A DNA stretch of 64,000 nucleotides from Candidatus Eiseniibacteriota bacterium (GCA_043810925.1 JBDRNT010000161.1:64001-128000); one strand, 5' to 3'. Positions 7,444 through 63,804 are shown, counted from the stretch's first letter. A program made the numbers and translations. Notes: generated from the sequence alone by a model not told the origin.

Positions 7444-9345
7444 TCACACGCGCGGACTGCTGCCGAACATCTCAGCGCGTGCCTTGCTTGATTCCAGTAT
7501 TCTCCGGATCACCCGGAGTACTTCTCTTATGTTGAAAGGCTTGCGCAAGAACTCAAAACCTTTCTCGCATGTTATGACCCATTGTGCTTCCTCATCCATA
7601 TAACCGCTGGTCAGGAGCACCGGGAGATCAGGCTTAAGAGCGAGCAGCCGTTCCGCCAGTCTTATCCCGTCTTCATCCGGCAGCACGACATCGCTGAAGA
7701 GGAGGTCGAACTCACCGTTTTCTCTCCGGAAGATCGCAAGCGCCTCGTTGGACCCCGGCGCGTCGATAGGAACATAGCCGCTTTCCGACAGCACGGCTGT
7801 GACCATCTCGCGGATCTCATCCTCATCCTCGACGACCAGGATGCGTTCACCCTGTCCACGTACATCGCTTATCCCAACCGGGGAGTCATCCGCCCTTTCA
7901 GACATTATCGAAACCGCCGGGAGGTAGATTTTGAAAGTCGAGCCCCGTCCCGGCTCGCTGTAGACGCTGATCCAGCCTTCATGCTGTTTGACGAGACCCT
8001 GTGCCACTGAAAGTCCGAGACCGGATGCGTTCTCCGCACGTCTCGTGGTGAAGAACGGTTCGAAGATCTGCTGGACGGCCTCCTTCTTGATTCCGGTTCC
8101 CTCGTCCGTGATCGACACACATACAAACTTGCCGGCCCTGGCACCCGGAACCAGCTCCCATTCTCCTTCCCTGAAAGTCACATTCTCGGTCTTGATTCTG
8201 ATATGTCCGCCTTCGGACATCGCATCCCTGGCGTTGATCATCAGGTTCATGATCACCTGCTCGATGCCGGACCCATCAGCTTGCACCGTCCAGAGATCGG
8301 GCTCCAGGCTGGCATTGACCTCTATGTCGTCACCGGCGAAGTGGCCGAGCAACTTGAGCATCCTGTGTGTTGTTATATTCAGGTCTATCGGACTCACCTT
8401 GACCGGGTGCCGCTCGCTCAAGAGGAGTAGCTGACGCGAGAGATTGACCGAACGGACGCATGCGTCATGTATGTGTTGTATGGTCTTGTCGAGTGACGCA
8501 TCCCCGTGTTCACGGATCGTGGCCATCCAGATGTTCAGCTCATGCGCTATCTGTCCGGCCAGTATTCCGATGTCCTCCATCTTCTCACCTCGAAGGAGCT
8601 GGACCTGCATCTTCTGACGTTCGTCTCCCGATTCCTGCCGTGCTGTGTCCACCTTGCTCAACCGTGCAGCCTGGATCGGCCCCAGGTAGCCGCTAACGGA
8701 CCCGAGGAGTTCCAGATCCGTGTCGTCGTAATCAGCAGGCTTGTTTCCCACCGTGAGAAGCCCGATCGTTTCGTTCTCATGAATGACAGGGGCCACGAGA
8801 GCTCTTTCCAGCTGGATATATCCCTCAGTCACCTGCGACGTTTGGTTGGTACACTGGGTATCTTTCTCAAGTAGAGCCCGGTTCCACAGGTCTCCCCAGT
8901 CCTTGCGGGGAAACACCCGGGTCTTAGCAACAGTATCACCCCGCCCCTCCCCCTCGGCTCTTAGGGATGGGCATGCAAGGTCACCGTCCCTGTTCACATA
9001 GCCGAGGAGCCCGTCCTTGCTCCCGGTGGCATCCAGGACTACCTGCAGGGCTTCCTGATAAACATTCTCTTCAGGCTTTGTGAGGAAGATCTCAGCAATC
9101 TGATTTCTGAGTGCCGTGGCCCGTTCGGCGCGCTGGGAAGAGTCCCTTGCACGTCGTGACTTAACCAGCGTTCTGTATGCCACAACGCCGAATACCGCCG
9201 GGATCGTATAGCCGGGGAGATTGCTGACCAGCCATTGCCATGCCGAGGCTTCCGGCCGCAAGAGCGGAGCAAGTACCACGTGCAGGCCATAGATGGACGC
9301 AGCAACAGATATACCGACTATGATGAGCTTGTGCTCATCTTTCAT
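7444..9345 (-). CDS. Hybrid histidine kinase (2 TM, GAF, kinase, receiver)
   Basis: IAHELN H-box (shortened), QVIMNLMINARDAM, FEPFFTT, receiver LLFSDVVLP. Confidence 0.88.
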   Translation of the reverse strand: MKDEHKLIIVGISVAASIYGLHVVLAPLLRPEASAWQWLVSNLPGYTIPAVFGVVAYRTLVKSRRARDSSQRAERATALRNQIAEIFLTKPEENVYQEALQVVLDATGSKDGLLGYVNRDGDLACPSLRAEGEGRGDTVAKTRVFPRKDWGDLWNRALLEKDTQCTNQTSQVTEGYIQLERALVAPVIHENETIGLLTVGNKPADYDDTDLELLGSVSGYLGPIQAARLSKVDTARQESGDERQKMQVQLLRGEKMEDIGILAGQIAHELNIWMATIREHGDASLDKTIQHIHDACVRSVNLSRQLLLLSERHPVKVSPIDLNITTHRMLKLLGHFAGDDIEVNASLEPDLWTVQADGSGIEQVIMNLMINARDAMSEGGHIRIKTENVTFREGEWELVPGARAGKFVCVSITDEGTGIKKEAVQQIFEPFFTTRRAENASGLGLSVAQGLVKQHEGWISVYSEPGRGSTFKIYLPAVSIMSERADDSPVGISDVRGQGERILVVEDEDEIREMVTAVLSESGYVPIDAPGSNEALAIFRRENGEFDLLFSDVVLPDEDGIRLAERLLALKPDLPVLLTSGYMDEEAQWVITCEKGFEFLRKPFNIREVLRVIRRILESSKARAEMFGSSPRV

Positions 9346-50990: not shown

Positions 50991-53852
50991 TTAGTGTGCC
51001 GCTCCGACTTCTTCCCTGATTTCCCCGACTTCGATCTCGACTGCGTGGATGATGCTTTCGAGATCCATCTTGTCGACGACACGTAGGAATGCGTCGACAA
51101 CCCTCGGGTCGAATTGGCTGCCTGAACAGCGTTCGATTTCCTCGATGGCTCCCGCCATGGTTCGCTTGCGCTTGTACCATCTGTCGTGGATCATGGCGTC
51201 AAAGGAATCAGCCACGCAGAGGATGCGTGCACCGATCGGAATGTCGTCTCCACTCAGAGCATGCGGATAACCGAGTCCATCGTATCGCTCGTGATGATAC
51301 CGGATCATCTCCGCCACCTGCATCGATGAACCCGCGCACGAAGCGATCTCGGCACTTACATCGGGGTGGGTACGTTTGTATTCCTCTTCTTCGTACTCAT
51401 CCAGCCTTGCCGGCTTTCGAAGGACCTGGTTCGGCCACGAGACCTTACCGAGATCGTGACGAATCGCGGCCTCCTCTATTCTCTCGACGAAAGGCTCGCG
51501 CTTGCCCATCTCCCGGGCTATGGCCACTCCGATCTCGACCACACTCGCTGAATGGCCGCCCGTGTAGCGATCCTTCTCATCGACGGCCTTCGCGATCGCC
51601 CTTATGAGGCTATCCTGAGCTCTGAGGAGTTCATGCCGCCTGAGAAGCGCAAGATGACGCCAGAGCGTCGGGAAGAGGAAGAGCGGCAGCGCCGACCACA
51701 GCCCAAGCAGATTGTTACCGACGAGTATGGCATAACCGCATACGGCATATGTGAGAGGTTCCGGGAAGACTTTGAGATAGTTGCGCTGCCAGAGACGTGC
51801 CGTAGAGATTCCATCACGCGAAAGAAGCGCTGACTGGACGATAGTCTCCATCGCGTAGAAGACCCCCGTCGCAAGGACAAACGGGATCAACTGGGCCGCC
51901 GTTGCCTCAAGACCGAGCGTATCGGAAGCGTGGGTTCCAAACCGGTACACCAGCCAGGCGCCGCAACCCGCCAGCATGAGCACAAAGCCGTAGGCCGATG
52001 CAGTGGAAAGCCGGGCCCCCAGGGCTTTGCTCTTGATGACGCTGGTTATCCCTCCATTGCTATGGTCCCCGCTGACAATATAACCTGTGTCGGTATCTCC
52101 CCGGGCATGCTGACCGTTGCTACCATTGGCAGCTCCGTTAATCACTCCCACGGACGATGACAGGGCACGCTTGGGATCGAGCAGCATCGCCCAGCCTATC
52201 GCTGCAAATCCGAACATGACCGCATAGAGAGGGCCGCCGGCAAGCGACATCACGAGCACAACAGCAGACGAGGACGAAACATATGCGCCCCACGGGAGCC
52301 TGACAGGCTTAAGCGCTGCTAGTCCGAGCAAGAGCATGAAGAACAGGCTCCCCGCGGGGCTGCATGTGATCCGACTGGATACGAACCCGAGCGATCCGGA
52401 TATACTCAGATTGGTGAAGACAAGTAGTACTACCGCAGCCATTGCTACCATGCACGATCCGAGCACCATCGACCGTCGGTGTTTTCGATCACGGGGCAGC
52501 ACCAGAATGGGTTTGGTCTTGCCCTTATACAGACGTTGCTTGATATGCCGTCTGGATGGCGGGCCGAAACCCTTTGCGGCCTTGGCGGCAAGATCGTCCC
52601 TTCCCATCATCTCGAAGAGGAAGTAGACCACGGTTGCGTCAAGCGAATAGCCCTGGGCACGCGCGATCTCATCAAGGGCCTGGTCTTTCGAAAAGACCCG
52701 CCTGCGATGAGGGCGCTCGCTCGTCAGAGCAACATAAGCCTCCGCGACTTTGATAATTGCGGCCTCAAGCGGGATGTCATCGCCTTTGATACCCCTGGGA
52801 TAACCGGTCCCGTCGGGGCTCTCATGATGGCAACGTACGATGCCCGCGACCGGGCCCATTCCCACGACTTCTCTCAGAATCCGCATGCCGCTCTCGGGGT
52901 GCTCCTTTATCTCGTTCATCTCGTCTTCATTGAGCAAGGAACGCTTGAGCACCGTATCCCTGTCCACGGCGATATAGCCTACATTGTGGAGCATTGCGGC
53001 CTGCTCAAGCAGTTCGAAACTCCGGTAGGGCAGCCTCATCTTATGTGCAAGGGCGACGGAGAGCTCCACCACGCGCCGCGTTTCACCTTTGAGATGAGGC
53101 ATGTTGCCGTCCCGGGCGAGACGCAGTGCATCCACGAGGTGAACCACGGATGATTTGATGCGCACGTGATCACGCACCGTCAGGATGCCGATCAGGCCGA
53201 TCCCGACCAATATGCCAATGAGGAGAAATCCACCCTCAAGAAAGAACAGAGCAAGCAGGTACGCCCCGAGCGGCGTGCTCCAGGACACCAGCGCCCCCCA
53301 CCCGAAATTCGCGCGCCACACTTCGAAGGGATTCCGGCCATCGCGCAACCAGATCGCTGTGGAGAGCACGACGGTAGTTGTCGAAAAATACGCTGCATGA
53401 GCAGCTATAAGTCTCAGGAAGACCCCACGGTCCATTCCGGCACTGATAGCCCCCGTTTCAAGACTTGGGCCCCAAAGTATGTACCCCGCAGCAAGTAGGC
53501 AAAAAGCATGTTTCGCCGAATTGACGAGTACACGCTGGACATCCGCTCCAGGGCTTCGAGTGCGAGATGAGAGAGTGGCTATAATCCCGATTAGCCAGCT
53601 CGCAATGACAGAAGCACCCGTTCCGTACAGGACCAGCATCGTGATTAGCGGCAACGGACTGATATTCAGCGCACCGACGCCTGCCATTCCCCTAACTGGG
53701 AGAACTATGACCACGACAGCAAGAGCAAGCCAGAGAATGGCGCTGGGGGAATCACGGAATGTGCTGAGTGCACTTGGTAAGATGGGGATGACGACTGCGG
53801 TAGCGGCAAACCCCAAGACCAATGCGAATATCCAAAACTTCTTGTTGGTCAA
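50991..53852 (-). CDS. Double [membrane sensor + HD-GYP] protein; first HD-GYP degenerate, second intact (putative cyclic-dinucleotide phosphodiesterase)
   Basis: Domain 1 LHNVG/HHE..GYP/VAEAY; domain 2 GHS/RHDLGK/HHERYDGLGYP/VADSFDAM; each preceded by a multi-TM block; TTG 53852 after GAGGAGG. Confidence 0.88.
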   Translation of the reverse strand: MTNKKFWIFALVLGFAATAVVIPILPSALSTFRDSPSAILWLALAVVVIVLPVRGMAGVGALNISPLPLITMLVLYGTGASVIASWLIGIIATLSSRTRSPGADVQRVLVNSAKHAFCLLAAGYILWGPSLETGAISAGMDRGVFLRLIAAHAAYFSTTTVVLSTAIWLRDGRNPFEVWRANFGWGALVSWSTPLGAYLLALFFLEGGFLLIGILVGIGLIGILTVRDHVRIKSSVVHLVDALRLARDGNMPHLKGETRRVVELSVALAHKMRLPYRSFELLEQAAMLHNVGYIAVDRDTVLKRSLLNEDEMNEIKEHPESGMRILREVVGMGPVAGIVRCHHESPDGTGYPRGIKGDDIPLEAAIIKVAEAYVALTSERPHRRRVFSKDQALDEIARAQGYSLDATVVYFLFEMMGRDDLAAKAAKGFGPPSRRHIKQRLYKGKTKPILVLPRDRKHRRSMVLGSCMVAMAAVVLLVFTNLSISGSLGFVSSRITCSPAGSLFFMLLLGLAALKPVRLPWGAYVSSSSAVVLVMSLAGGPLYAVMFGFAAIGWAMLLDPKRALSSSVGVINGAANGSNGQHARGDTDTGYIVSGDHSNGGITSVIKSKALGARLSTASAYGFVLMLAGCGAWLVYRFGTHASDTLGLEATAAQLIPFVLATGVFYAMETIVQSALLSRDGISTARLWQRNYLKVFPEPLTYAVCGYAILVGNNLLGLWSALPLFLFPTLWRHLALLRRHELLRAQDSLIRAIAKAVDEKDRYTGGHSASVVEIGVAIAREMGKREPFVERIEEAAIRHDLGKVSWPNQVLRKPARLDEYEEEEYKRTHPDVSAEIASCAGSSMQVAEMIRYHHERYDGLGYPHALSGDDIPIGARILCVADSFDAMIHDRWYKRKRTMAGAIEEIERCSGSQFDPRVVDAFLRVVDKMDLESIIHAVEIEVGEIREEVGAAH

Positions 53853-53898
53853 CCAGACTCCTCCTCGGACTATGCACAACTTGCCGGTGAAAGGATAC

Positions 53899-53913
53899 GC
53901 AAGCTATGTGCCA
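53899..53913 (-). promoter_or_regulatory. sigma54 (-24/-12) promoter
   Basis: TGGCACATAGCTTGC, near consensus, 46 nt upstream of the HD-GYP start. Confidence 0.75.
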
Positions 53914-54001
53914 GGATGCGGTATTCAGCTCGGGTTAACTGCTTGCCCGCAAAGGGATTGCCGACTGCAAATCGGGGGACAAACGAAGAACGGGCCTCAG
54001 C

Positions 54002-54030
54002 CCGTTGCAAAATGCGAAAACCGTTGCAAA
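54002..54030. promoter_or_regulatory. Candidate enhancer (bEBP) sites
   Basis: Direct repeat CCGTTGCAAA at 54002 and 54021, about 90-120 bp upstream of the sigma54 site. Confidence 0.45.
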
Positions 54031-54032
54031 TA

Positions 54033-54060
54033 GCAAAAAGGCGCTAGAGCGCCTCCTTGC
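54033..54060 (-). terminator. Intrinsic terminator after the small peptide gene
   Basis: AGGCGC-TCTA-GCGCCT followed by TTTT on minus strand. Confidence 0.7.
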
Positions 54061-54091
54061 AGAACAGTTCTTACTTCTGGGCTACCCTAGA

Positions 54092-54151
54092 CTAGAGTTC
54101 ACCATCCCAGAAGCCCAGCCAAACGATAATCCAACTGATAAATCCTAACAT
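54092..54151 (-). CDS. 19-aa hydrophobic Trp-rich peptide MLGFISWIIVWLGFWDGEL
   Basis: AAGGAGG SD 8 nt before ATG; own promoter and terminator; below the ORF-track size cutoff. Confidence 0.7.
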   Translation of the reverse strand: MLGFISWIIVWLGFWDGEL

Positions 54152-54190
54152 CTTCGGATCCTCCTTACTGTACTTCTTGCGCGCAACAGT

Positions 54191-54219
54191 AGTGTATCAA
54201 CTTCCTTGGTTTATGTCAA
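54191..54219 (-). promoter_or_regulatory. sigma70 promoter for the small peptide gene
   Basis: TTGACA-N17-TACACT with extended -10 TG. Confidence 0.75.
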
Positions 54220-54449
54220 GCTCTTTTTTGCGCTTATTAACACGCCGGCCGGGCGACCTCGGAGGATGTTATGATATTAGTAACTACGTGCAGTTAAACA
54301 CGTTAAGCGGATATGCCGACAGGTTGCCCCTCGGCAGTGTGGTGAAAATCGCTGTCCCGGGTTGGCCGGAACCGCTGGCAGTAGTCAAGAACTCACACTG
54401 ATTCGGCCACGACTGGAAACTTAGTCTTGGGAGGGGCCGGCTGCTGATC

Positions 54450-57400
54450 TCAGTTCAACCAGTCGCGACAGAGGAGCTCGGCTTGCTCCAGAACCGTATG
54501 CGTCGCCTTCTCCTGTTTGTCGGGCGGATAGCCGTACTTGCGTAGGACTCGCTTCACCATGATCCTCAGTTTCGCGCGGCTGCTCTCCTTGAGTGTCCAA
54601 TCTATGGAGACATTCTTCCGGACAGTCTCTACAAGCTCCCGGGCAATCGTCAGCAGTACTTTATCACCCAGCACCTTAACGGCACTATCATTCGTCTCAA
54701 GGGCGTCATAAAACGCTATCTCTTCATCCGTTAGACCTAGATCCTCACCCCGGCGGCTTGCCTCCCGCATCTCTTTCGCAAGAGCGATCAACTGCTCAAT
54801 GACCTGGGATGTCTCAATTGCACGGTTCTGGTACGCGCGAATCGAACGCTCCAGCATCTCCGCAAATGACCGTGACTGTACAAGATTCTTGCGTGCGCGC
54901 GTCTTGATCTCATTATTGAGTAGCTTCCGCAGGAGTTCGATCGCCAGGTTCTTCTGCGGAAGGCTTCGAACATCAGCGAGGAATTCCTCCGACAAGATCG
55001 AGATGTCCGGTTTCTTCAGCCCCGCCTCTGCAAAGATGTCGACCACCTGGTCAGATGCTATTGCCTTGGATACAAGCTGGCGGACTGCCTGTTCAAGGAT
55101 CTCTTCCGGTTTCTGTGTCACCGTAGCCGCTTTCGCCAGGGCGGCACGAACAGTCTGGAAAAAGGCCACGTCATCACGTATCTTCGCAGTTTTCTCATGC
55201 GGAACAGATAGGGCGAAGGCCTGAGAAAGCTCGGTCACGAACTTAAGGCACCTGTCCTTGCCCCCCTCCTGAGCAAGGATATGCTCCTGTGCTGCCGGGA
55301 GCAGCGTCAGCCGCTCCACAGGAGTTCCCATCTTCCAGAGCGACCAGTCGAAGCCATGGAAGAGATCACAGCATATCTCGTATTTCTCAAGCATGACGGC
55401 CACCGCCTCCGCCTGGTCGATCGCGGTGCTGCCCCTGCCCCCGCTCTCGGTATAATGGGCGAGGGCCTGCCTGAGGTTGTCTGCAAGTCCCAGGTAGTCC
55501 ACGACCAGCCCACCGGGTTTATCAAGGAAGACCCGATTCACCCTTGCGATCGCCTGCATCAGGCCATGTCTTCGCATGGGCTTATCGACATACATTGTGT
55601 GGAGACAGGGAGCATTGAATCCCGTGAGCCACATGTCACGGACAATCACGATCTTCATGGAATCGTCCGGATCTCTGAATCGATCGGCCAGCTTCTCCCG
55701 GCGCGCCTTGTTTCGAATATGCTGCTGCCACTCAAGCGGGTCCGAGGCGGAACCAGTCATCACTACTTTAATAGCCCCCTGTGTATCATCTTCAGTGTGC
55801 CAGGCGGGCCGCAGCCTCACGATCGCATCGTAGAGATCAACACATATACGGCGGCTCATGCAAACCACCATTGCCTTCCCATCCATGACCTCAAGCCGCC
55901 CCTCGAAGTGATCGATAAGGTCCTGTGCAATGAGCCTGATTCGTTTCTCGGTGCCTACCACTGCTTCCAGTGCAGCCCACTTCGTCTTGAGCCTCTCCCT
56001 GCGTTCAACCTCTTCCCCCTCGGTTATCTCCTCGAATTCCTCATCGAGATGGGGCTTTTCGGTTTCCTTGAGTTCAAGCTTCGCAAGCCGACTTTCGTAG
56101 TAGATGGGCACAGTGGCGCCATCCTCAACAGCCCGTTGTATATCATAGATGTTGATGTAATCACCGAAGACGGCTCTGGTGTTCTTATCTCTAAGCTCTA
56201 TTGGAGTCCCCGTAAACCCAATGAACGAGGCATTCGGAAGAGCATCGCGCATGTGTCGGGCGAACCCGTCGATGAAGTCGTACTGGCTCCGATGGGCCTC
56301 GTCGGCGATGACTACTATGTTGCTCCGATCCGAGAGCCTGGGGAAAGCATCACGCCTTTGCTCAGGGAGAAACTTCTGGATGGTCGTAAACACGACTCCT
56401 CCCGAGGCTACCTTGAGAAGTTCACGAAGTTCGGCACGATCAGCAGCCTGGACGGGCTTCTGACGTAAGATTTCATGGCAGCCACAGAAGGTGTCGAACA
56501 ACTGGTCGTCGAGATCGTTGCGATCGGTTATTACTACTACTGTTGGATTCTCCATCGCCGGGTGGAGGATAATCCGCCCGGCATAGAAAGCCATCGTGAG
56601 GCTCTTACCCGATCCCTGAGTGTGCCAGATGACACCTGCCCGCCTGTCGGCAACCCGATAGGCAGCCCGTGCCTCAGCCGCAATGATGGCTTCGTCCCGT
56701 TGCCCGTGTAGCGATACTGACCCAGCCACGCCTTCCGAGACTCCGCAGGCTCGAAGTGTGGATTCGACCGCCAGGTTGACCGCATGGAATTGATGGTAAC
56801 CGGCTGTCTTCTTGACGGGCAGCCCCCCGGCTTCTTCTTCAAACACAATGAAGTACCTGAAAAGATCAAGCAGGCGCTGCTTGTTGAACATCCCCTTGAT
56901 GAGCACTTCAAGCCGCGGCATAGAGACCGGAGCCACATCTTCCCCCTCGATTGTCCGCCAGGGGAGATACCACTCCCTGTTCGCCGTAAGCGAACCGAAA
57001 CGAGCCTCGAGGCCATCCGAGACGACGAGCACTTCGTTAAAGCCGAAGAGTGAGGGGATCTCCTGCTTATATGTCTGAAGCTGTTTGAGTGCAGTCCAGA
57101 TAGTGGCGTTCTCATCAGCTGGGTTTTTAAGTTCAATGGTTACAATAGGAAACCCGTTGAGGAAGAGCACGATGTCCGGGCGCCGGTTGTGCCGGTCTTC
57201 GATAACCGTAAATTGGTTGACGGCCAGCCAGTCGTTGTTGTTGGCATCCTCAAAGTCTACGAGCGTCGCCTTGTCGTGGACGATCCGGCCATCGGATCGA
57301 TACTCCACATCGATACTGTTTACGAGCATTCTGTGAAAGGTGCGGTTGTTCTGGATGAGTGAGGCTGACTCCGCGCGTGTGACCTTGCGAAAGGCCTCAT

Positions 57401-57602
57401 CAAGTGCCGCTGCCGGGATCTCTGGGTTCAGGCGAGCAAGCGCATCCTTAAGCCTAGTGGGAAGAAACGGCTCCTCGTAGCTCTCCCGCTCGGCCAGAAG
57501 CTCCCCTGGGGCAATCTCCGGACCATGAAGGATGGAGTATCCCAGGCTTTCAAGCCATGAGAGGGCCGCCTCCTCAACCGTTGATTCCCATAGATGGCTC
57601 AC
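54450..57602 (-). CDS. hsdR: Type I restriction enzyme subunit R
   Basis: RPDIVLF..IELK nuclease, [34 protein letters not shown]. Confidence 0.96.
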
Positions 57603-58309
57603 GGAGTGACCCCAACGTAAATGGTATGTATCCGAAATTTCTTCTTCTTGGCGCTGTCAAGCCCAAGCACGCTGTCTTGCATCTCCAACGCCTCTTTCCA
57701 ACCGTCTCGTTCCTTGGGACAGTCTGCATGCGGGTTCGTGTCGCCGCAGAAATATATGTAGAGAAGACACGCTGGGACTCCCTGGTATTCTAGGAAATGC
57801 AGCACCGCAAGGCGATTTGCGTATTGATAGTACTCCTTCAGCCAGTCGCGTGGCACCTCGATGCCTACTGCCTGCTGTGTTTGGTGGAGGGCCTTCTCAA
57901 TAGTCTCAAGTGAGCGAGGAGATTCAGCGCTGCAGCGACTCTTGAGCTCTCCTATATGAGCCTTTGCCTCCACCAGAAGCCAACGATCGACGCTATCACT
58001 TCGAATGCGGCCGACTGCATCCCAGTTGGGAGCGTTGCCGGTCTGGGGCCAGAAGGACTTCCATGCTGTGAAAACATCAGCGCATCGCTCCTGGCTCAGA
58101 AAATCTATGCCGGTGATCTCCTTATCAGGCAGCTTTATCTTAGTGGCATCTGCCGGATCGTACTTGCCGCTGTGTTTGAAATCCTTCCATTCGATTACCT
58201 GCCCACCAGTCTCTTGTTCGATCATCGTGTTCAGTTCGTTGCGGTAGCGTCCCATCCACCGCATCAGGTGAAACTCACTCCCATATCCGGCCCCAATGTG
58301 CGTGCTCAT
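57599..58309 (-). CDS. Hypothetical protein, putative PD-(D/E)xK nuclease fold
   Basis: WDAVG...LLVEAK spacing; stop overlaps the hsdR start (GTGA); start uncertain. Confidence 0.65.
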
Positions 58310-58313
58310 AGAA

Positions 58314-59528
58314 TCACCCAACCTCCTTCATAATCTTCTTCGCTCGATCAACCCGAATCTCGCCGGAAATCAACTTCGGTAACAGCGCATCCCTCACGGA
58401 TCCCAACCGCCTGGATTCGTGAGCGGTGGCGATTATCCTAGCCATCAACGGATACACGAGCTGGCTGAACGCTTCTGCCAGTGCTCGCGGCGGGATGGCG
58501 ATCCGATAGCGTCTCATGTCCTGCCACTTCGTGCGCGGCATCTTGGTTCCCGTTGAACACATAGCGGTGTAATTCACGAAAGCGTCACTCGACACTATTC
58601 CAAGCACGAATCCACGCCACTGGTTTGCCTTCGGTACGATCACAAGAATATCAGTTGAGCAAATACCGTCAATCGCTGCGATCCCGACCTTGTGGAAATA
58701 GGGACGGAGTTTCCCGAAAAGAACCTCCCCCCTCCTGAACAGAAATTTGCCGCTCGCGAGCTCTTCCGCGCATCCCCACTCGGACAGAGCCCAAGCCCGA
58801 CGCGGCATGTGTTCCAGACCGATATATGGCGTTTTCTCATGAAGATCATCGGGGCGGACCGTCCGTCGTAGATTAGCCCCAATGTCGTCAAGCACACCGG
58901 CAACCCAGCCGCGCGGAATCTTCCCGAGCCCCGAGTCTTGGAAGGAATCCGGAAACAGATCGGCGATGTGTTTTGGAAGGCCGGGATCGCGGCCTTCGGC
59001 TTTGGCGCGTACAGGATCGAAGTCCACAAACCACGATTTGAAGATCGCCCGCGCCATCGCCTCAAGCGTTTCGTTCATTCGCCGGTTAAGCTCAATCTTA
59101 TCATCCAGGCTTCCCAGTATGCGCGTGATAGCGCGCTGCTCCTTCAGAGGTGGAATCGGCGCGGGGATCATGCTGAGCGTTGATTGATTAAGAAGCGGTT
59201 GGCCAGAACCTCCTCTCCATTGATTAAGTTGGAGAGTCCAAAGAAGATAAAAGAGGTAGCGGGGTGAGTTATCGTTTAATGCTACTGCACGAATTGCATT
59301 GTCAGTTACCCAACATGTTGGATGGCTAAAATGGAGCGACCCACAGTAGCTACCTACGCGACCGATGACAATTGTGTCCGGACCGGAGTTGGCCTCCCCT
59401 GCATAGCCTATGATGCCGTTCGAACCGTAGACAGGGTATGGCAACCCATCGGCGCGTTCTGGGTTGGATCTGCCATTAGAAAACGATAAGACCTCCCCAA
59501 GTGTTTTTTCTGTCCACTCACCCGCCAT
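58314..59528 (-). CDS. hsdS: Type I restriction enzyme specificity subunit S
   Basis: Two TRDs, PPLKEQRAI..LDDKIELNRRMNETLE central region, RDALLPKLISGE end; start MAGEW with GGAGG. Confidence 0.95.
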   Translation of the reverse strand: MAGEWTEKTLGEVLSFSNGRSNPERADGLPYPVYGSNGIIGYAGEANSGPDTIVIGRVGSYCGSLHFSHPTCWVTDNAIRAVALNDNSPRYLFYLLWTLQLNQWRGGSGQPLLNQSTLSMIPAPIPPLKEQRAITRILGSLDDKIELNRRMNETLEAMARAIFKSWFVDFDPVRAKAEGRDPGLPKHIADLFPDSFQDSGLGKIPRGWVAGVLDDIGANLRRTVRPDDLHEKTPYIGLEHMPRRAWALSEWGCAEELASGKFLFRRGEVLFGKLRPYFHKVGIAAIDGICSTDILVIVPKANQWRGFVLGIVSSDAFVNYTAMCSTGTKMPRTKWQDMRRYRIAIPPRALAEAFSQLVYPLMARIIATAHESRRLGSVRDALLPKLISGEIRVDRAKKIMKEVG

Positions 59529-59697
59529 AGCCGATGTCCTCCAGGTTTGCCCAGACGATCTCGTCCCGATACAGCCACTTGGCAGGGACCCGGGTATCAC
59601 TTCTACAACTGGCCGCAGCCAAACTCCTTCAGCTTGGCCCAGACAGCCCTACGATGCAAGTTCCTCCTCGGCCATCCCTTTATCAGCGTGCGCGGTA

Positions 59698-60900
59698 TCA
59701 CTTCTTATCCCTTTTCATATCAACGTTGCCCAGTTCCGCCTCCAGTTCCTCGATCGTAGGTAGGCTTCCCTTGAATTTCTTGGGTAGCGATTTCACGATC
59801 TTTGTCTTCCACTCAGCAACACCAATGGGCTTCTTCATGTCGCGCAACGCGTATTCGACCTGGAGCTTGTTCTTCGATCTGCACAGGATCAGGCCTATCG
59901 ACGGCATGTCATCCAGGTGCCGCAACTGATCGTCCACTGCCGATAAGTAGAAGTTCATCTTGCCTGCGTACTCTGGAATGAACGGTCCCATCTTGAGATC
60001 GATGACGACGAAGCAGCGTAGATTAAGATGGTAGAAGAGCAGATCGATATAGAAATCGTCCTCACCGACTTCCAAGTGTACCTGCCGCCCGGCAAACGCA
60101 AAACCGATGCCAAGCTCCAATAGGAAGCGCTGTATGTGATCCAAGAGACCCAGTTCAAGTTCCCGCTCTCGTGCTGCAGCATCCAGCGTCAGGAAGCCGA
60201 AGATATAGGGGTCCTTGAGTACCTGCGAAGCCAGGTCAGACTGGGGAGCAGGCAGTGTAGACTCGAAGTTCGTCAAGGCTTTGCCGTGCCTCCGGTAGAG
60301 GTCAGTTTCGATCTGGATACCGAGTACGCTGCGCGACCAGCCATGTTCGATGGTCTTTTGCGCATACCACATCCGCGCTTCGGGCTCTTTGACACGCTCT
60401 ACGAGGTCCGTATTGTGACGCCAGGGAATCTGGCCGAGCAGATCGAGCAGAACCAGTTTGCGGGATTGTCCCCCGGCGTGGGGGACAACTAGATCGGCCG
60501 TCTCTCCGACAGTGGGTGGGATAGTCCTCCCGGGTATTTGTCCCCCAGCCTGGGGGACGATTTGGTCAGCGTCTGGATATGCAAGGTGGAACGAGCGCAT
60601 GCGATAGATGTTGGTTCGGGAGAAGCCGGAGAGCTCAGGGAACTCCGTCTGGAGATCACCGGCCAATCGGTCTATTACCTTGGAACCCCAAGCCTCTGTT
60701 TGTTGGCGCTTAACGATCGCCCTTCCAATGTCCCAGTACATCCAGATGAGTTCGCGGTTGGCGGACAGCGCGGCCTTCACTTGCACAGTACGGATTTTCT
60801 CCTTCAGCCGGGCTAGAAATTCTGGATATGTCCGCGGTATAGGTAGATCCTTGGGCGTAATAGTTCCTTTCTCAGGTCTTGACCGTTTGCTAGAGCTCAT
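59698..60900 (-). CDS. yhcG: YhcG/DUF1016 PD-(D/E)xK nuclease-family protein
   Basis: YWDIG, WGSKVIDRLAGDL, KDPYIFGFL, LLELGIGFAF, YIDLLFYH..VVIDLK. Confidence 0.92.
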   Translation of the reverse strand: MSSSKRSRPEKGTITPKDLPIPRTYPEFLARLKEKIRTVQVKAALSANRELIWMYWDIGRAIVKRQQTEAWGSKVIDRLAGDLQTEFPELSGFSRTNIYRMRSFHLAYPDADQIVPQAGGQIPGRTIPPTVGETADLVVPHAGGQSRKLVLLDLLGQIPWRHNTDLVERVKEPEARMWYAQKTIEHGWSRSVLGIQIETDLYRRHGKALTNFESTLPAPQSDLASQVLKDPYIFGFLTLDAAARERELELGLLDHIQRFLLELGIGFAFAGRQVHLEVGEDDFYIDLLFYHLNLRCFVVIDLKMGPFIPEYAGKMNFYLSAVDDQLRHLDDMPSIGLILCRSKNKLQVEYALRDMKKPIGVAEWKTKIVKSLPKKFKGSLPTIEELEAELGNVDMKRDKK

Positions 60901-61144
60901 GATCCACCTCCTCGCCATCGTACCCTTCCCATGCACTTGATGCTCCAGATCGGAATCTCAAGCCGCTGCCCCACAATAAAATGTCCCACAGTCTGTGGGA
61001 CATTCTCCCAGCCCGATTCGCCAACAGGCCCATAGATACTCCCCACCCAGTCCAACAGGCAGTCGGAGTCTCAATCTACCCTCTAATTGTGCACGCAGTG
61101 GGTGCACTTTCCGCTCTGGGCAATCCCCGCACACCGGCTTCTCC

Positions 61145-62719
61145 CTATATCTCATACCCAATTCCCTTGAGGTTCCTGCGGATGGCCTTTTCGAGTTTCC
61201 TGGACTCCTTGAACTGATCGGCGAGTTGGCCCGTGAGACGCCTCATCTTCTCATCGAAGGGCTCGTCGTCCTCCTCTGCCGGTTCAACCCCGACATACCG
61301 GCCCGGTGTCAAAACGTGGCTGTGCTCCCGGATGTCATCAATGGATGCGCTCTTGCAGAACCCGGGCCTGTCCTTGTACTTGCGCTTCCACTGCTTTCCA
61401 CGCCAGGCATGGTAGGTGCCCGCAATCCGGGCGATATCCTCTTCGGTCAACTCCCGGTGTGTGCGGTCAACCATAGTGCCCATTTTGCGCACGTCTATAA
61501 AGAGCACCTCGCCCTGCCGCTTCCGGTGGCGGCCATTCTTCCTATCACGCGATACAAACCAGAGGCATGCCGGGATCTGAGTGCCATAGAAGAGCTGGCC
61601 GGGCAGGGCGATCATGCAGTCAACCAGGTCTTTCTCTATCAGGCTTTTGCGTATCTCTCCTTCACCCGACTGACTCGAGCTCATTGACCCGTTGGCCAGA
61701 ACGAAACCGGCTATTCCCGTTGGTGCAAGATGATGGATCATCTGCTGGACCCATGCGAAGTTGGCATTGCCGACAGGCGGAACACCGTACTTCCACCGGA
61801 CATCATCCCGCAGGAGCTCACCGCCCCAATCGCTGACGTTGAAGGGTGGATTAGCAAGTATGTAATCCGCCTTGAGATCCCTGTGGAGATCGTTATGGAA
61901 GCTGTCGCCATGGTGGGGACCAAGGTTGGCCTCAATGCCACGAATGGCGAGGTTCATTTTGGCTATCCGCCAGGTTGTGGGATTCGATTCCTGTCCATAT
62001 ATCGAAAGATCGCCGATCTTGCCTCCATGAGCAGTGATGAATTCTTCACTCTGGACAAACATCCCCGACGAGCCGCAGCAAGGGTCATATACCCGCCCCT
62101 TGAAAGGTTCAATCATCTCAACCAGGAGCCTCACAATGCAGCGAGGGGTATAGAACTCTCCGCCTTTCTTGCCTTCGGCACTGGCAAACTGCGACAGGAA
62201 GTATTCGTACACACGGCCGAGGATGTCCTTCGAGCGGTTCTCTTTGTCACCGAGGGCTATCGTGCCGACTAGATCGATGAGTTCTCCGAGCCTCTGTTTG
62301 TCTAGTGCCGGCCGCGCATAGTCTTTAGGAAGCACACCCTTTAGGGTCTTGTTGTCGTGCTCGATCGCGAGCATTGCATCGTCGATCAGCTTGCCGATCT
62401 TCGGCTGTTTGGCATTTGCCTGAAGGTACGACCACCGAGCAGCCTTCGGCACCCAGAAGATGTTGAAGGCGCGGTATTCATCCGGATCTTCCGGGTCGGC
62501 CCCCGCCCTCTTCTGGCCGACCAGCTCGGTGTGTTTCTCCTCGAAGGCATCGGAGATGTACTTAAGGAAGATGAGTCCAAGAACGACGTGTTTGTACTCG
62601 GCGGCATCCATGTTGCTTCTGAGCTTGTCCGCCGCTTGCCAGAGTTTGGCTTCGAAGCCCAGTGTGGCACCGCTTGCAGCCGCTTTCGTCTTCCGCGTCG
62701 GTCCCCGTCCGGTCGCCAT
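61145..62719 (-). CDS. hsdM: Type I restriction-modification methyltransferase subunit M
   Basis: [30 protein letters not shown]. Confidence 0.96.
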
Positions 62720-62727
62720 ATCCCGCC

Positions 62728-62958
62728 TCAATGACTGTCTACCAGGGACAACTTGAGCTTCCCTCGCCTGGCCATCCGCATGCAGAAACTGTCAAGCTGT
62801 GCCCTTGCCAGTTTGGACGGCTTGAACTGACCGTTCTCCCACCGGTTCACGCTTGCGAAGCTTACACCTAACTCACGAGCGAGATCCTCCTGGCTGAGGC
62901 CGAGTTGACTACGGATCTCCTTCAGTAGCGCAGGGTAGTCCATTTCTCCTGGTGTCAT
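62728..62958 (-). CDS. XRE-family HTH regulator (possible controller of the RM operon)
   Basis: [32 protein letters not shown]; directly upstream of hsdM. Confidence 0.88.
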
Positions 62959-63150
62959 ATCTGGATTCCTCTGCAGATGCTCCTGGTACGTTGATATCAT
63001 AATATCACATGCTATACCACCTGCAAGAGGAAAATACAAGAAAGGTGAGATCAGCATTTGTGCAGCAGACTGCCGCACAATTCGGTGAATCGGCCGGCAC
63101 CCGCCTTACGCCACACTTGATGTTCCAGATTGGAACTGCAAGTCTCCGGG

Positions 63151-63609
63151 TTACGCCTTCAGCTCCGACGTACAGAAGCCGCAACGGGTTGCCGGAATAG
63201 GAATAACCGAGTAGCAGTACGGGCATTCCTTGGTCGTCGGCACGGCCGGCGGTGCTTCCGCTTCCTTCTTCATGTTGTTGATACTGCGTATAAGCATAAA
63301 CACGCAGAACGCGACGATGATGAAGCTGATGATGGTATTCAGGAACACCCCATAGTTGACTGAAACTGCGCCGGCCGCCTGTGCATCGGCAAGCGATGCA
63401 TATGGACCCGGGGTGATGCCTTGCTTCAAGACCGCGAAGAGATTGGCGAAATCAACGTTGCCCAGCAGCATCCCGATAGGCGGCATGATGACATCGGCGA
63501 CAAGTGACTTGATTATAGTGCCGAAGGCAGCACCGATTATGATGCCTACGGCCATGTCAACCACATTGCCGCGTATGGCGAAGTCCTTAAACTCCTTCAT
63601 AACTGACAT
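63151..63609 (-). CDS. mscL: Large-conductance mechanosensitive channel with C-terminal zinc ribbon
   Basis: [24 protein letters not shown]; tail CPYC...RCGFC. Confidence 0.95.
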
Positions 63610-63804
63610 GGGTCCCCCTCCTTTGGTTAGTCCACACAGATGGGTTCGCGACACATTGTCCACGAATCGGCACCTTGATGTCAATGGCTTTCCCGCGGGG
63701 GGCACTCCTCCTGCAAAACAGCCAAAGTGCTATGAATAGGAGGCCTGTATACGTTATCCTCCGCTGGAGTTGTCGTATTCTATCAAGGGGGTTGAGAAGT
63801 CACT

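Follow-up and report, generated by a model that had tools for sequence, protein, structure and literature searches.

Very small hydrophobic membrane proteins of bacteria such as MgrB, AcrZ, and KdpF, which have 29 to 49 residues and a full membrane span, bind a larger membrane protein (PhoQ, AcrB, and KdpABC, respectively). Most small membrane partners of this type are not kept beside their target across families, and we know of no such partner for HD-GYP proteins. Small proteins also accompany CbiM and NikM, the metal-specific S components of energy-coupling factor (ECF) transporters, whose accessory proteins are CbiN and NikN; CbiN has about 100 residues, two spans, and a role in transport, and S components have their ligand-binding site on the outer face. 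A leader peptide, TnaC, controls Rho-dependent termination just downstream. ComS is described as a 17-residue pre-peptide that is cut to a 7-residue signal, contains conserved Trp residues and is encoded by a small open reading frame (ORF) beside the gene for its receptor (PMC5131902). Here, we analyzed a stretch of 64,000 nucleotides from Candidatus Eiseniibacteriota bacterium (GCA_043810925.1 JBDRNT010000161.1:64001-128000), referred to as the window, which contains a mini-gene for a 19-residue peptide. The mini-gene is located on the minus strand in a 570-nt gap between hsdR (54450-57602) and the gene for a 953-amino acid membrane protein with two HD-GYP domains, referred to as the dual HD-GYP gene.

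An earlier note on this DNA had proposed that the peptide is a signal or membrane ligand for the adjacent HD-GYP sensor. Comparison of related loci shows, at the level of codon substitutions, that the mini-gene encodes a peptide under purifying selection on its amino acid sequence. It was also shown that the mini-gene is inherited with the HD-GYP gene and nowhere else and, as read from its conserved signals, that it constitutes an autonomous, strongly signalled transcription unit. We suggest, with a probability of roughly 0.4, that the product is a functional micropeptide whose target, in trans, is the neighboring HD-GYP membrane protein.

The individual elements of the unit (Table 1) were found as the earlier note had described them. 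They comprise a TTGACA-N17-TACACT promoter, seen both by reading the sequence and in a promoter scan, an AAGGAGG Shine-Dalgarno (SD) sequence 8 nt before the ATG codon, an ORF whose translation agreed exactly, with Trp at residues 7, 11, and 15, a GC hairpin followed by a U-tract, and a further hairpin that overlaps the stop codon. Judging by its hexamers, the promoter is of the sigma-70 type, with a TG one base ahead of the -10 hexamer and an A-run ahead of the -35 hexamer, and it was the sole promoter-like site at positions 53700-54600 in a consensus scan (10/12 matches), in which 1 site was found versus 0.4 expected from shuffles. A transcript of about 150 to 155 nt would extend from the promoter to the terminator, similar to the previous estimate of about 150 nt, and the absence of the mini-gene from the ORF track fits the 20-codon minimum of an ORF listing, as compared with the 19 codons of the ORF. 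One search of sequencing runs yielded no RNA run that matched, and only one DNA run, which contained 0.05 of the words. The mean hydropathy of the peptide was 1.31 over its full length and 2.25 before the last 7 residues. The terminator was absent from the list produced by the consensus scan, which gave a second hairpin at 54006-53989. No second copy of the mini-gene was detected in the same genome by DNA search or peptide profile, and a search of NCBIfam with three homologous peptides of 20 to 21 residues gave no match. A chance origin of the unit is not excluded by one window alone, but it is excluded because every element is conserved in the orthologous loci.

The phylum set searched contained 18 genomes, 12 of which, all from one order, carried the dual HD-GYP gene. 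Four of these 12 loci were cut by a contig end and were left out of the count, their upstream DNA being unreadable. In all 8 loci with intact upstream DNA, an ORF of 17 to 21 codons preceded the dual HD-GYP gene by about 300 nt and had the same orientation. Six further loci were obtained in a metagenome scan; the mini-gene was present in the four with more than 300 nt of upstream DNA, two of which were near-identical, and just the sigma-54 promoter described below was visible in the other two, which had only about 135 nt. A scan of species genomes added one more contig, also with the mini-gene. The earlier note had tied its proposal to a conserved small ORF upstream of homologous HD-GYP genes, and such an ORF was thus present in all 13 loci with enough upstream DNA, in a total of 15 copies (genus g5 has two).

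Promoter, SD sequence, ORF, and terminator were present in all of the mini-gene loci, as seen in a 12-locus alignment. The A-run, an AGC triplet and TTGACA were invariant (alignment A3), a TG preceded a weak TAnnnT hexamer in 11 of the 12 loci, and a terminator hairpin, the sequence of which differed between loci, was found in all 12. The alignment also showed conservation of the SD sequence, the reading frame, and the TTG start codon of the dual HD-GYP gene. A GGAGG-type SD sequence was located 6 to 9 nt before the ATG codon in 15/15 copies of the mini-gene. The genes upstream of the mini-gene, on the other side from the HD-GYP gene, differed between genomes. A profile built from ten peptides retrieved only the HD-GYP-linked copies in the 18 phylum genomes (E 2e-9 to 4.5e-5); a weak match in the genome G007 (E 0.117) was found on inspection to contain no mini-gene. 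Over 401 genomes, the same profile gave one extra match outside the phylum, on a 5.6-kb contig (L060, G186:C100) in a genome of another phylum, where the mini-gene, the start of the HD-GYP gene, and a major facilitator superfamily-like neighbor were arranged as in G003. This contig mirrors the locus of genus g3 and has most likely been mis-binned or moved very recently. In genus g5, the two copies of the mini-gene were arranged in tandem, each with its own SD sequence (G010, L039 3256-3815; G005, L040 ~8299-8672), and in G010 they came from a 163-nt duplication of the promoter and the ORF, with 84% identity, 397 nt apart, and with a further promoter-like copy between them.

The proportion of synonymous differences (pS) was higher than that of nonsynonymous differences (pN) in 19 of 19 pairs of mini-genes of equal length, for example 0.49 versus 0.05 in the comparison of G002 and G008. 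Differences in length amounted to whole codons, and the third codon base was free at the conserved positions of the tail, where all four Ala, three Ile, and three Gly codons were used. The hydrophobic body of the peptide was also conserved, with conservative replacements, and the stop codon varied among TAG, TAA, and TGA. An Asp residue was located exactly three residues before the stop codon in 10/10 type-1 and 9/9 type-2 copies, so that three residues follow the tail Asp in both mini-gene lineages. It was preceded by Phe-Trp in 8/10 type-1 and 9/9 type-2 copies, the two exceptions being Phe-Phe and Tyr-Trp. The regular spacing of Trp at every fourth residue, which had caught the eye in the earlier note, holds for the window peptide but is not general, since only the Trp of the C-terminal Phe-Trp-Asp is widely kept, and relatives have Tyr or Phe in place of Trp 11 and Trp 15. 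A Trp attenuator of the trpL type was rejected on account of these replacements. A likeness of the tail to the GGDEF motif was also dropped, as the order of the residues differs and the tail varies.

The same comparisons bear on the proposal that the transcript is a non-coding small RNA (sRNA) with an incidental open frame. Its length of about 150 nt, its promoter and terminator, and the z-score of -2.2 for its predicted fold (-53 kcal/mol) would all suit such an RNA, but the untranslated regions (UTRs) were poorly conserved while the ORF stayed in frame, the differences were mostly synonymous, and a strong SD sequence stood at the right distance from the start codon in 15/15 copies. Furthermore, the terminator was the sole conserved RNA structure of the 12 transcripts (9 consensus pairs, of which 4 show changes on both sides). 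Rfam gave no match below E 0.1 in the window region; the best was RsmY, with 16.4 bits against a cut-off of 57 and an E-value of 0.22, which we regard as chance. A pure sRNA, which the earlier note had listed among its alternatives, is disfavored by the codon-level substitution pattern and seems barely credible.

The other alternative listed there was a type I toxin, which we considered together with a general membrane-active peptide that has no connection with the HD-GYP protein and is kept in check by an RNA. The peptide is short, hydrophobic, and unannotated, with a size like that of the Ibs-type toxins, and in the minimum-energy fold of the transcript a portion of the 5' UTR is base-paired to the ORF. 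However, this pairing was not conserved in the consensus fold of the 12 loci, and a sigma-70-like antisense promoter was found in none of the 15 units, including that of the window, in a consensus scan. The mini-gene was present as a single copy per genome, bar one tandem duplication; it was strictly syntenic with one gene in both families and had no link to mobile DNA. A toxin with such a strong promoter and exposed SD sequence would be lethal. Taken with the codon-level substitutions, these observations make a toxin very improbable.

Downstream of the mini-gene, a sigma-54 promoter of the HD-GYP gene was identified about 100 nt past two palindromes of the type TTGC-N5-GCAA (Table 1), the first of which overlaps the U-run of the mini-gene terminator. 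The sigma-54 promoter was also the element seen in the two short metagenome loci, and the genome carries rpoN and about 20 genes for sigma-54 activators. The double palindromes are probable binding sites for an activator of the sigma-54 promoter. A possible sigma-54 site over the palindromes themselves was rejected by eye, since its GG-to-GC spacing was 12 rather than 10. The window contains a third palindrome-like site downstream of these two; other loci contain a third site of this type upstream of the mini-gene promoter instead, in most of them at a distance of about 80 nt. As the terminator was found in 12/12 loci and the sigma-54 promoter is conserved, we conclude that the HD-GYP gene is transcribed on its own and that the mini-gene RNA ends before it.

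The dual HD-GYP protein consists of two modules, in each of which an HD-GYP domain comes after a membrane block of several helices. Its first module (454 residues) aligned end to end with a 431-amino acid single-module membrane HD-GYP protein (31% over 413 amino acids, E 8e-52), the gene for which was present in 14 genomes of the order. Upstream of the single-module gene, 12 of the 14 had a same-strand mini-gene with a product ending in Phe-Trp-Asp-(Ala/Val)-Ile-Gly. The stop codon of this second mini-gene was 27 to 208 nt before the single-module gene, with which it is predicted to be co-transcribed in this lineage, and the front parts of the peptides ranged from hydrophobic to clearly hydrophilic. 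The same tail thus occurs in three layouts, namely in a structured leader, as a plain first cistron and, in the window, in a separate unit with a terminator, and it is kept with or without a structured leader and with a hydrophobic or hydrophilic body. A paralogous mini-gene with the same tail, in addition to the selection on the protein and the strict linkage to HD-GYP genes, is consistent with a peptide that acts together with the sensor.

Several further features were noted in the paralogous loci. In the window genome, the corresponding stretch (L029 ~1380-1480, G000:C163) contained a remnant of the mini-gene, with read-through and changed residues, and in G001 (L028) the stretch was deleted; the promoter and the gene for the 431-amino acid protein were intact in both. 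The single-module genes in L031, L032, L034, and L027 start with ATG without a recognizable SD sequence, 27 to 208 nt past the mini-gene stop, and may rely for translation on the mini-gene or on the structure of the leader. In the leaders of four genera (L027, L033, L035, L026), repeats of the AGCG(A/G)AGCG type and complementary stretches flanking the mini-gene were seen by eye. Rfam gave no match below E 0.1 in eight paralogue loci.

More distant homologs of the membrane domain, with 21% to 28% identity, were collected from 16 loci in a sister family and in other phyla. In 11 of these 16 loci, the upstream DNA contained a mini-gene with an SD sequence and a product that ends in Trp or Trp-x; on the sense strand, 12 of 61 small ORFs had such ends, versus 0 of 49 on the antisense strand. 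Mini-genes of this type resemble that of the window in orientation, location, strong SD sequence, and hydrophobic front, and comprise 16 to 25 codons. The Phe-Trp-Asp tail was found in none of the 16 distant loci. The peptide of the sister family ends with Gly-Phe-Asp and then a terminal Trp, which looks like an intermediate form, and the last Trp of the window peptide, which is not Trp-ending, is fifth from the end. Given the Trp-ending mini-genes before the distant homologs, we therefore consider the window mini-gene to be a derived member of a wider family. In the distant loci (L088-L103), the same AGCG(A/G)AGCG-type motif and complementary stretches were seen by eye, with a U-run after the 3' strand in several of them. 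In the full-text literature, supplements aside, we found nothing on mini-genes beside HD-GYP genes or on the tail motifs.

These comparisons raise an alternative not considered in the earlier note, a cis-acting leader, in which the nascent chain with its Phe-Trp-Asp tail, or translation up to the stop codon, holds the ribosome and alters the expression of the downstream HD-GYP gene. The Trp- and Trp-x-ending mini-genes of the distant loci, the repeats and complementary stretches that flank the paralogous mini-gene in four genera, its short distance from a gene start without a clear SD sequence, and the constant spacing, in both lineages, between the conserved residues and the stop codon are all in line with such a role. 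So is the hairpin across the stop codon in the window, in which the Phe-Trp-Asp codons are paired with a stretch 11 to 18 nt past the stop. However, comparable pairing was seen in the single-sequence folds of only about 5 of the 12 loci and was absent from the consensus fold, and the hairpin and the terminator form side by side in single folds. Neither an alternative antiterminator pairing nor a long stem enclosing the mini-gene was conserved in the 12-locus consensus fold. The onset of the terminator, about 30 nt past the stop codon, is out of the ribosome's reach, and the HD-GYP gene beyond it has its own promoter. Furthermore, the hydrophobic body is conserved as well as the tail, the tail persists in paralogous loci without a structured leader, and the identity of the stop codon varies. 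A cis-acting leader deserves serious weight for the wider family and less for the window copy, where we consider it unlikely. A product acting in trans is preferred because nothing else explains the selection on the peptide where a terminator and a sigma-54-driven gene separate the two units.

We also examined the HD-GYP membrane protein, the presumed target. Its domain assignment was based on Pfam, which identified HD_5 twice (1.2e-64), and on NCBIfam, and the protein contained only HD_5 domains and membrane blocks. Domain 2 was canonical, with HD, HHE, and GYP motifs. Domain 1 had His-Asn where domain 2 has His-Asp (residues 289-290; window 52986-52984), and its catalysis may be impaired, with a role as sensor or scaffold instead. 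Residues 1-250 matched no Pfam family, and their relatives were few, with 8 cluster representatives in a set of 1.84 billion proteins. A model of this region based on 20 sequences had a predicted local distance difference test (pLDDT) score of 84 and a predicted template modeling (pTM) score of 0.79. In a wide fold search, in which helical bundles can reach a Z-score of about 13 by chance, the top 14 rows were all ECF S components (Z 13.4 to 9.6), followed by rows at about 7. The matches covered 150 to 181 aligned residues at a root mean square deviation (rmsd) of 3.1 to 4.2, with 181 residues and an rmsd of 3.3 for the top row (Z 13.4). CbiM/NikM came first (Z 13.4 and 13.1), followed by RibU, FolT, ThiT, BioY, and PanT down to 9.6. 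We assign an ECF S-component-like fold to the modeled sensor domain with moderate confidence, which would make it an S-component-like domain fused to HD-GYP. It was also noted that the dual HD-GYP gene was broken within the first 250 codons in five assemblies (G001:C138, G004:C14, G007:C74, G011:C121, and G003), and that G003 contained two different versions of this stretch (C268, C205). These breaks hint at strain-level variation or repeats at this spot.

According to the reading that we prefer, the peptide would be made in the cytoplasm and kept at or in the inner membrane by its hydrophobic body of 10 to 14 residues. The aromatic-acidic tail, that is Phe-Trp-Asp, three residues, and the free carboxyl end, would dock on the S-component-like sensor or on its junction with the catalytic domain. 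Docking would then set the hydrolysis of cyclic di-GMP (c-di-GMP), in a regulon with genes for exopolysaccharide export and type IV pili. The proposal in the earlier note of a ligand or signal for the sensor was supported in part, by the reality of the gene, the selection on the protein, the strict linkage, and the paralogous pair with the same tail. The co-folding that the note had also put forward gave weak support. It was run on the paralogous pair of G005, with the 30-residue form of the ORF and the 431-amino acid protein, each with an alignment, and scored 0.42 as compared with 0.01 for the best control. Of the 80 solved complexes, 58 passed the mark used, as did 2 of the 110 mismatched pairs, and scores of 0.60 or less included only 7 of the 80 solved complexes plus both of the mismatches that passed. 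The runs shared at least 78% of their contacts, and the pLDDT of the partner was at least 59.

Several observations weigh against a trans-acting partner of the sensor. The 13 loci are all from one order and are kin, and hence do not represent 13 independent events. The co-folding result is not only weak but concerns the paralogous rather than the window's own pair, and it came without an interface. Foldseek gave no match to the sensor domain at E 0.001 or better, the best being E 0.083 with riboflavin and thiamine S components in the lead, and the Z-scores of the wide search are within the chance range of helical bundles given above. With 10 to 14 hydrophobic residues and no basic one, the body of the peptide is short for spanning the membrane. 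Termination-stage arrest peptides likewise show conserved residues at a constant distance from the stop codon, and the related mini-genes in other phyla sit in structured leaders and end in Trp. Finally, genus g1, which includes the window genome, has lost the paralogous mini-gene and kept its protein, and its own peptide is therefore dispensable for the paralogous protein.

A different way of addressing the same sensor would be an exported pheromone, the C-terminal part of which is released and read from the outside by the S-component-like domain. In favor of this possibility are the tiny unannotated ORF with its own promoter beside a presumed receptor gene, a variable hydrophobic front combined with a conserved aromatic C-terminal part, the binding of ligands on the outer face of S components, and the palindromic site upstream of the promoter in most loci, which would permit feedback; ComS provides a precedent (PMC5131902). 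The peptide, however, has neither a signal peptide nor a basic residue, some of the paralogous peptides have hydrophilic fronts, and the tail of the paralogue is invariant across two families, whereas pheromones usually diversify. No linked gene for an exporter, processing protease, or importer was seen, the genome as a whole not having been searched for them. The hosts are predicted diderms, in which such peptide signaling is, to our knowledge, not established. We consider a pheromone quite unlikely.

A tentative extension of the preferred trans-acting reading, and one that we regard as possible but doubtful, is that the peptide may serve as the cognate ligand for a membrane sensor that resembles S components and is joined to a c-di-GMP phosphodiesterase. 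The two genes would then represent an old peptide-receptor module, with variants in several phyla and a duplication in the order, in which here the peptide gene would have become autonomous and strongly expressed and the receptor would have come under sigma-54 control. If the peptide is a ligand, it would be a new class of input for c-di-GMP signaling, in a field where the sensory inputs are unknown for most of the enzymes and annotation misses genes of fewer than 30 codons. The proposed module would imply peptide-based control of c-di-GMP turnover, possibly from cell to cell, in predicted diderm uncultured bacteria, and Trp-ending leader ORFs elsewhere would encode products and not switches alone. 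The locus provides a pair that can be tested, namely a 19-residue peptide whose tail is invariant and a membrane phosphodiesterase whose sensor domain resembles vitamin transporters. This pair is conserved together with its expression signals within a regulon for exopolysaccharide and pili. The autonomous layout is a natural separation of the mini-gene from its gene, and helps to judge between product and switch in other phyla.

Table 1. Positions of the mini-gene unit, the regulatory sites, and the dual HD-GYP gene in the window.
Feature	Position	Strand	Details
Mini-gene promoter	54191..54229	minus	A-run 54229-54224; -35 TTGACA 54219-54214; 17-nt spacer; TG 54199-54198; -10 TACACT 54196-54191
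Shine-Dalgarno AAGGAGG	54160..54166	minus	8 nt before ATG at 54151
Mini-gene ORF	54092..54151	minus	19 codons and TAG; hydrophobic body, then Gly-Phe-Trp-Asp and three residues
Hairpin over stop codon	54074..54113	minus	Arms 54113-54106 / 54081-54074
Intrinsic terminator	54033..54060	minus	12-pair stem, 4-nt loop, U-run
Two TTGC-N5-GCAA palindromes	54005..54036	minus	54036-54024 and 54017-54005; 19 bp apart; 12/12 loci
Third palindrome-like site (TTGCAGTCGGCAA)	53958..53970	minus	By reading of the sequence
Sigma-54 promoter of HD-GYP gene	53899..53913	minus	TGGCAC-N5-TTGC; GGCA and TTGC invariant in 12/12 loci
Dual HD-GYP membrane protein gene	50991..53852	minus	953 amino acids; likely start codon TTG at 53852, behind GGAGGAG; frame open over 50991-53879

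Double TTGC-N5-GCAA sites were found at only 4 places in the genome. Of the three others (G000:C104:49237, C69:69750, and C89:21773; L070-L072), one precedes an operon for exopolysaccharide export of the Wza/Wzz/Wzc-like type, one precedes a gene for a PilB/GspE-type ATPase with an MshEN domain, and one is located between genes for GspH/FimT-like and PilX-like minor pilins. The distribution of these sites suggests one regulator for surface behavior and the HD-GYP gene; with double palindromes shared with exopolysaccharide and pilus genes, the locus would thus be part of a small surface-behavior regulon.

On the other side of the mini-gene, a type I restriction-modification island (54450-63078, minus) is located between mscL (63151-63705) and the mini-gene. 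It contains hsdR, a 240-amino acid ORF without a Pfam match (57599-58321), hsdS, a YhcG/DUF1016 nuclease gene, hsdM, and a helix-turn-helix gene. The island is considered to be an insertion because mscL is located close upstream of the mini-gene in G008. The insertion appears, from a break in homology near 54245, to have removed the upstream palindromic site.

With regard to the systems described previously, the locus resembles ComS/XIP and the small hydrophobic peptide (SHP) signals with ComR/Rgg in streptococci in that a tiny unannotated ORF of about 17 codons forms its own transcription unit beside a receptor gene and in that the functional part is C-terminal and Trp-rich; their receptor, however, is a cytoplasmic transcription factor that is reached after export, cleavage, and re-import (PMC5131902; 10.1101/291088). 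The presumed receptor here is a membrane c-di-GMP phosphodiesterase in a predicted diderm phylum, no linked export or import genes were seen, and HD_5 domains and membrane blocks are all that the neighbor contains, unlike an RRNPP-type receptor such as ComR/Rgg.

Among leader peptides, TnaC is similar in being a short ORF in which Trp and Asp are conserved and stand at constant distances from the stop codon, but the mini-gene is followed by an intrinsic terminator without an alternative fold, and the next gene has its own promoter. Unlike attenuator and arrest leaders of the trpL and TnaC type, the mini-gene is not co-transcribed with the HD-GYP gene in the window lineage. The likeness to Ibs/Sib type I toxins is in the size and hydrophobicity of the peptide, whereas the mini-gene has no antisense RNA signal and no multicopy spread, and is distinguished by strict synteny and strong, constitutive-looking expression signals.

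Like MgrB, AcrZ, and KdpF, the peptide is very small, hydrophobic, and missed by annotation, and those proteins bind a larger membrane protein; they differ in having 29 to 49 residues and a full membrane span. The pairing of an S-component fold, to which the top fold matches point here, with a small membrane protein encoded beside it recalls CbiN/NikN with CbiM/NikM, although there is no relation in sequence to CbiN and the fold is here joined to a signaling enzyme. The domain differs from the S component of an ECF transporter in that residues 1-250 belong to no Pfam family and are fused to HD-GYP. In its catalytic part, the neighbor is like the HD-GYP c-di-GMP phosphodiesterases, the function predicted for it from HD_5 and from the complete set of motifs in domain 2.

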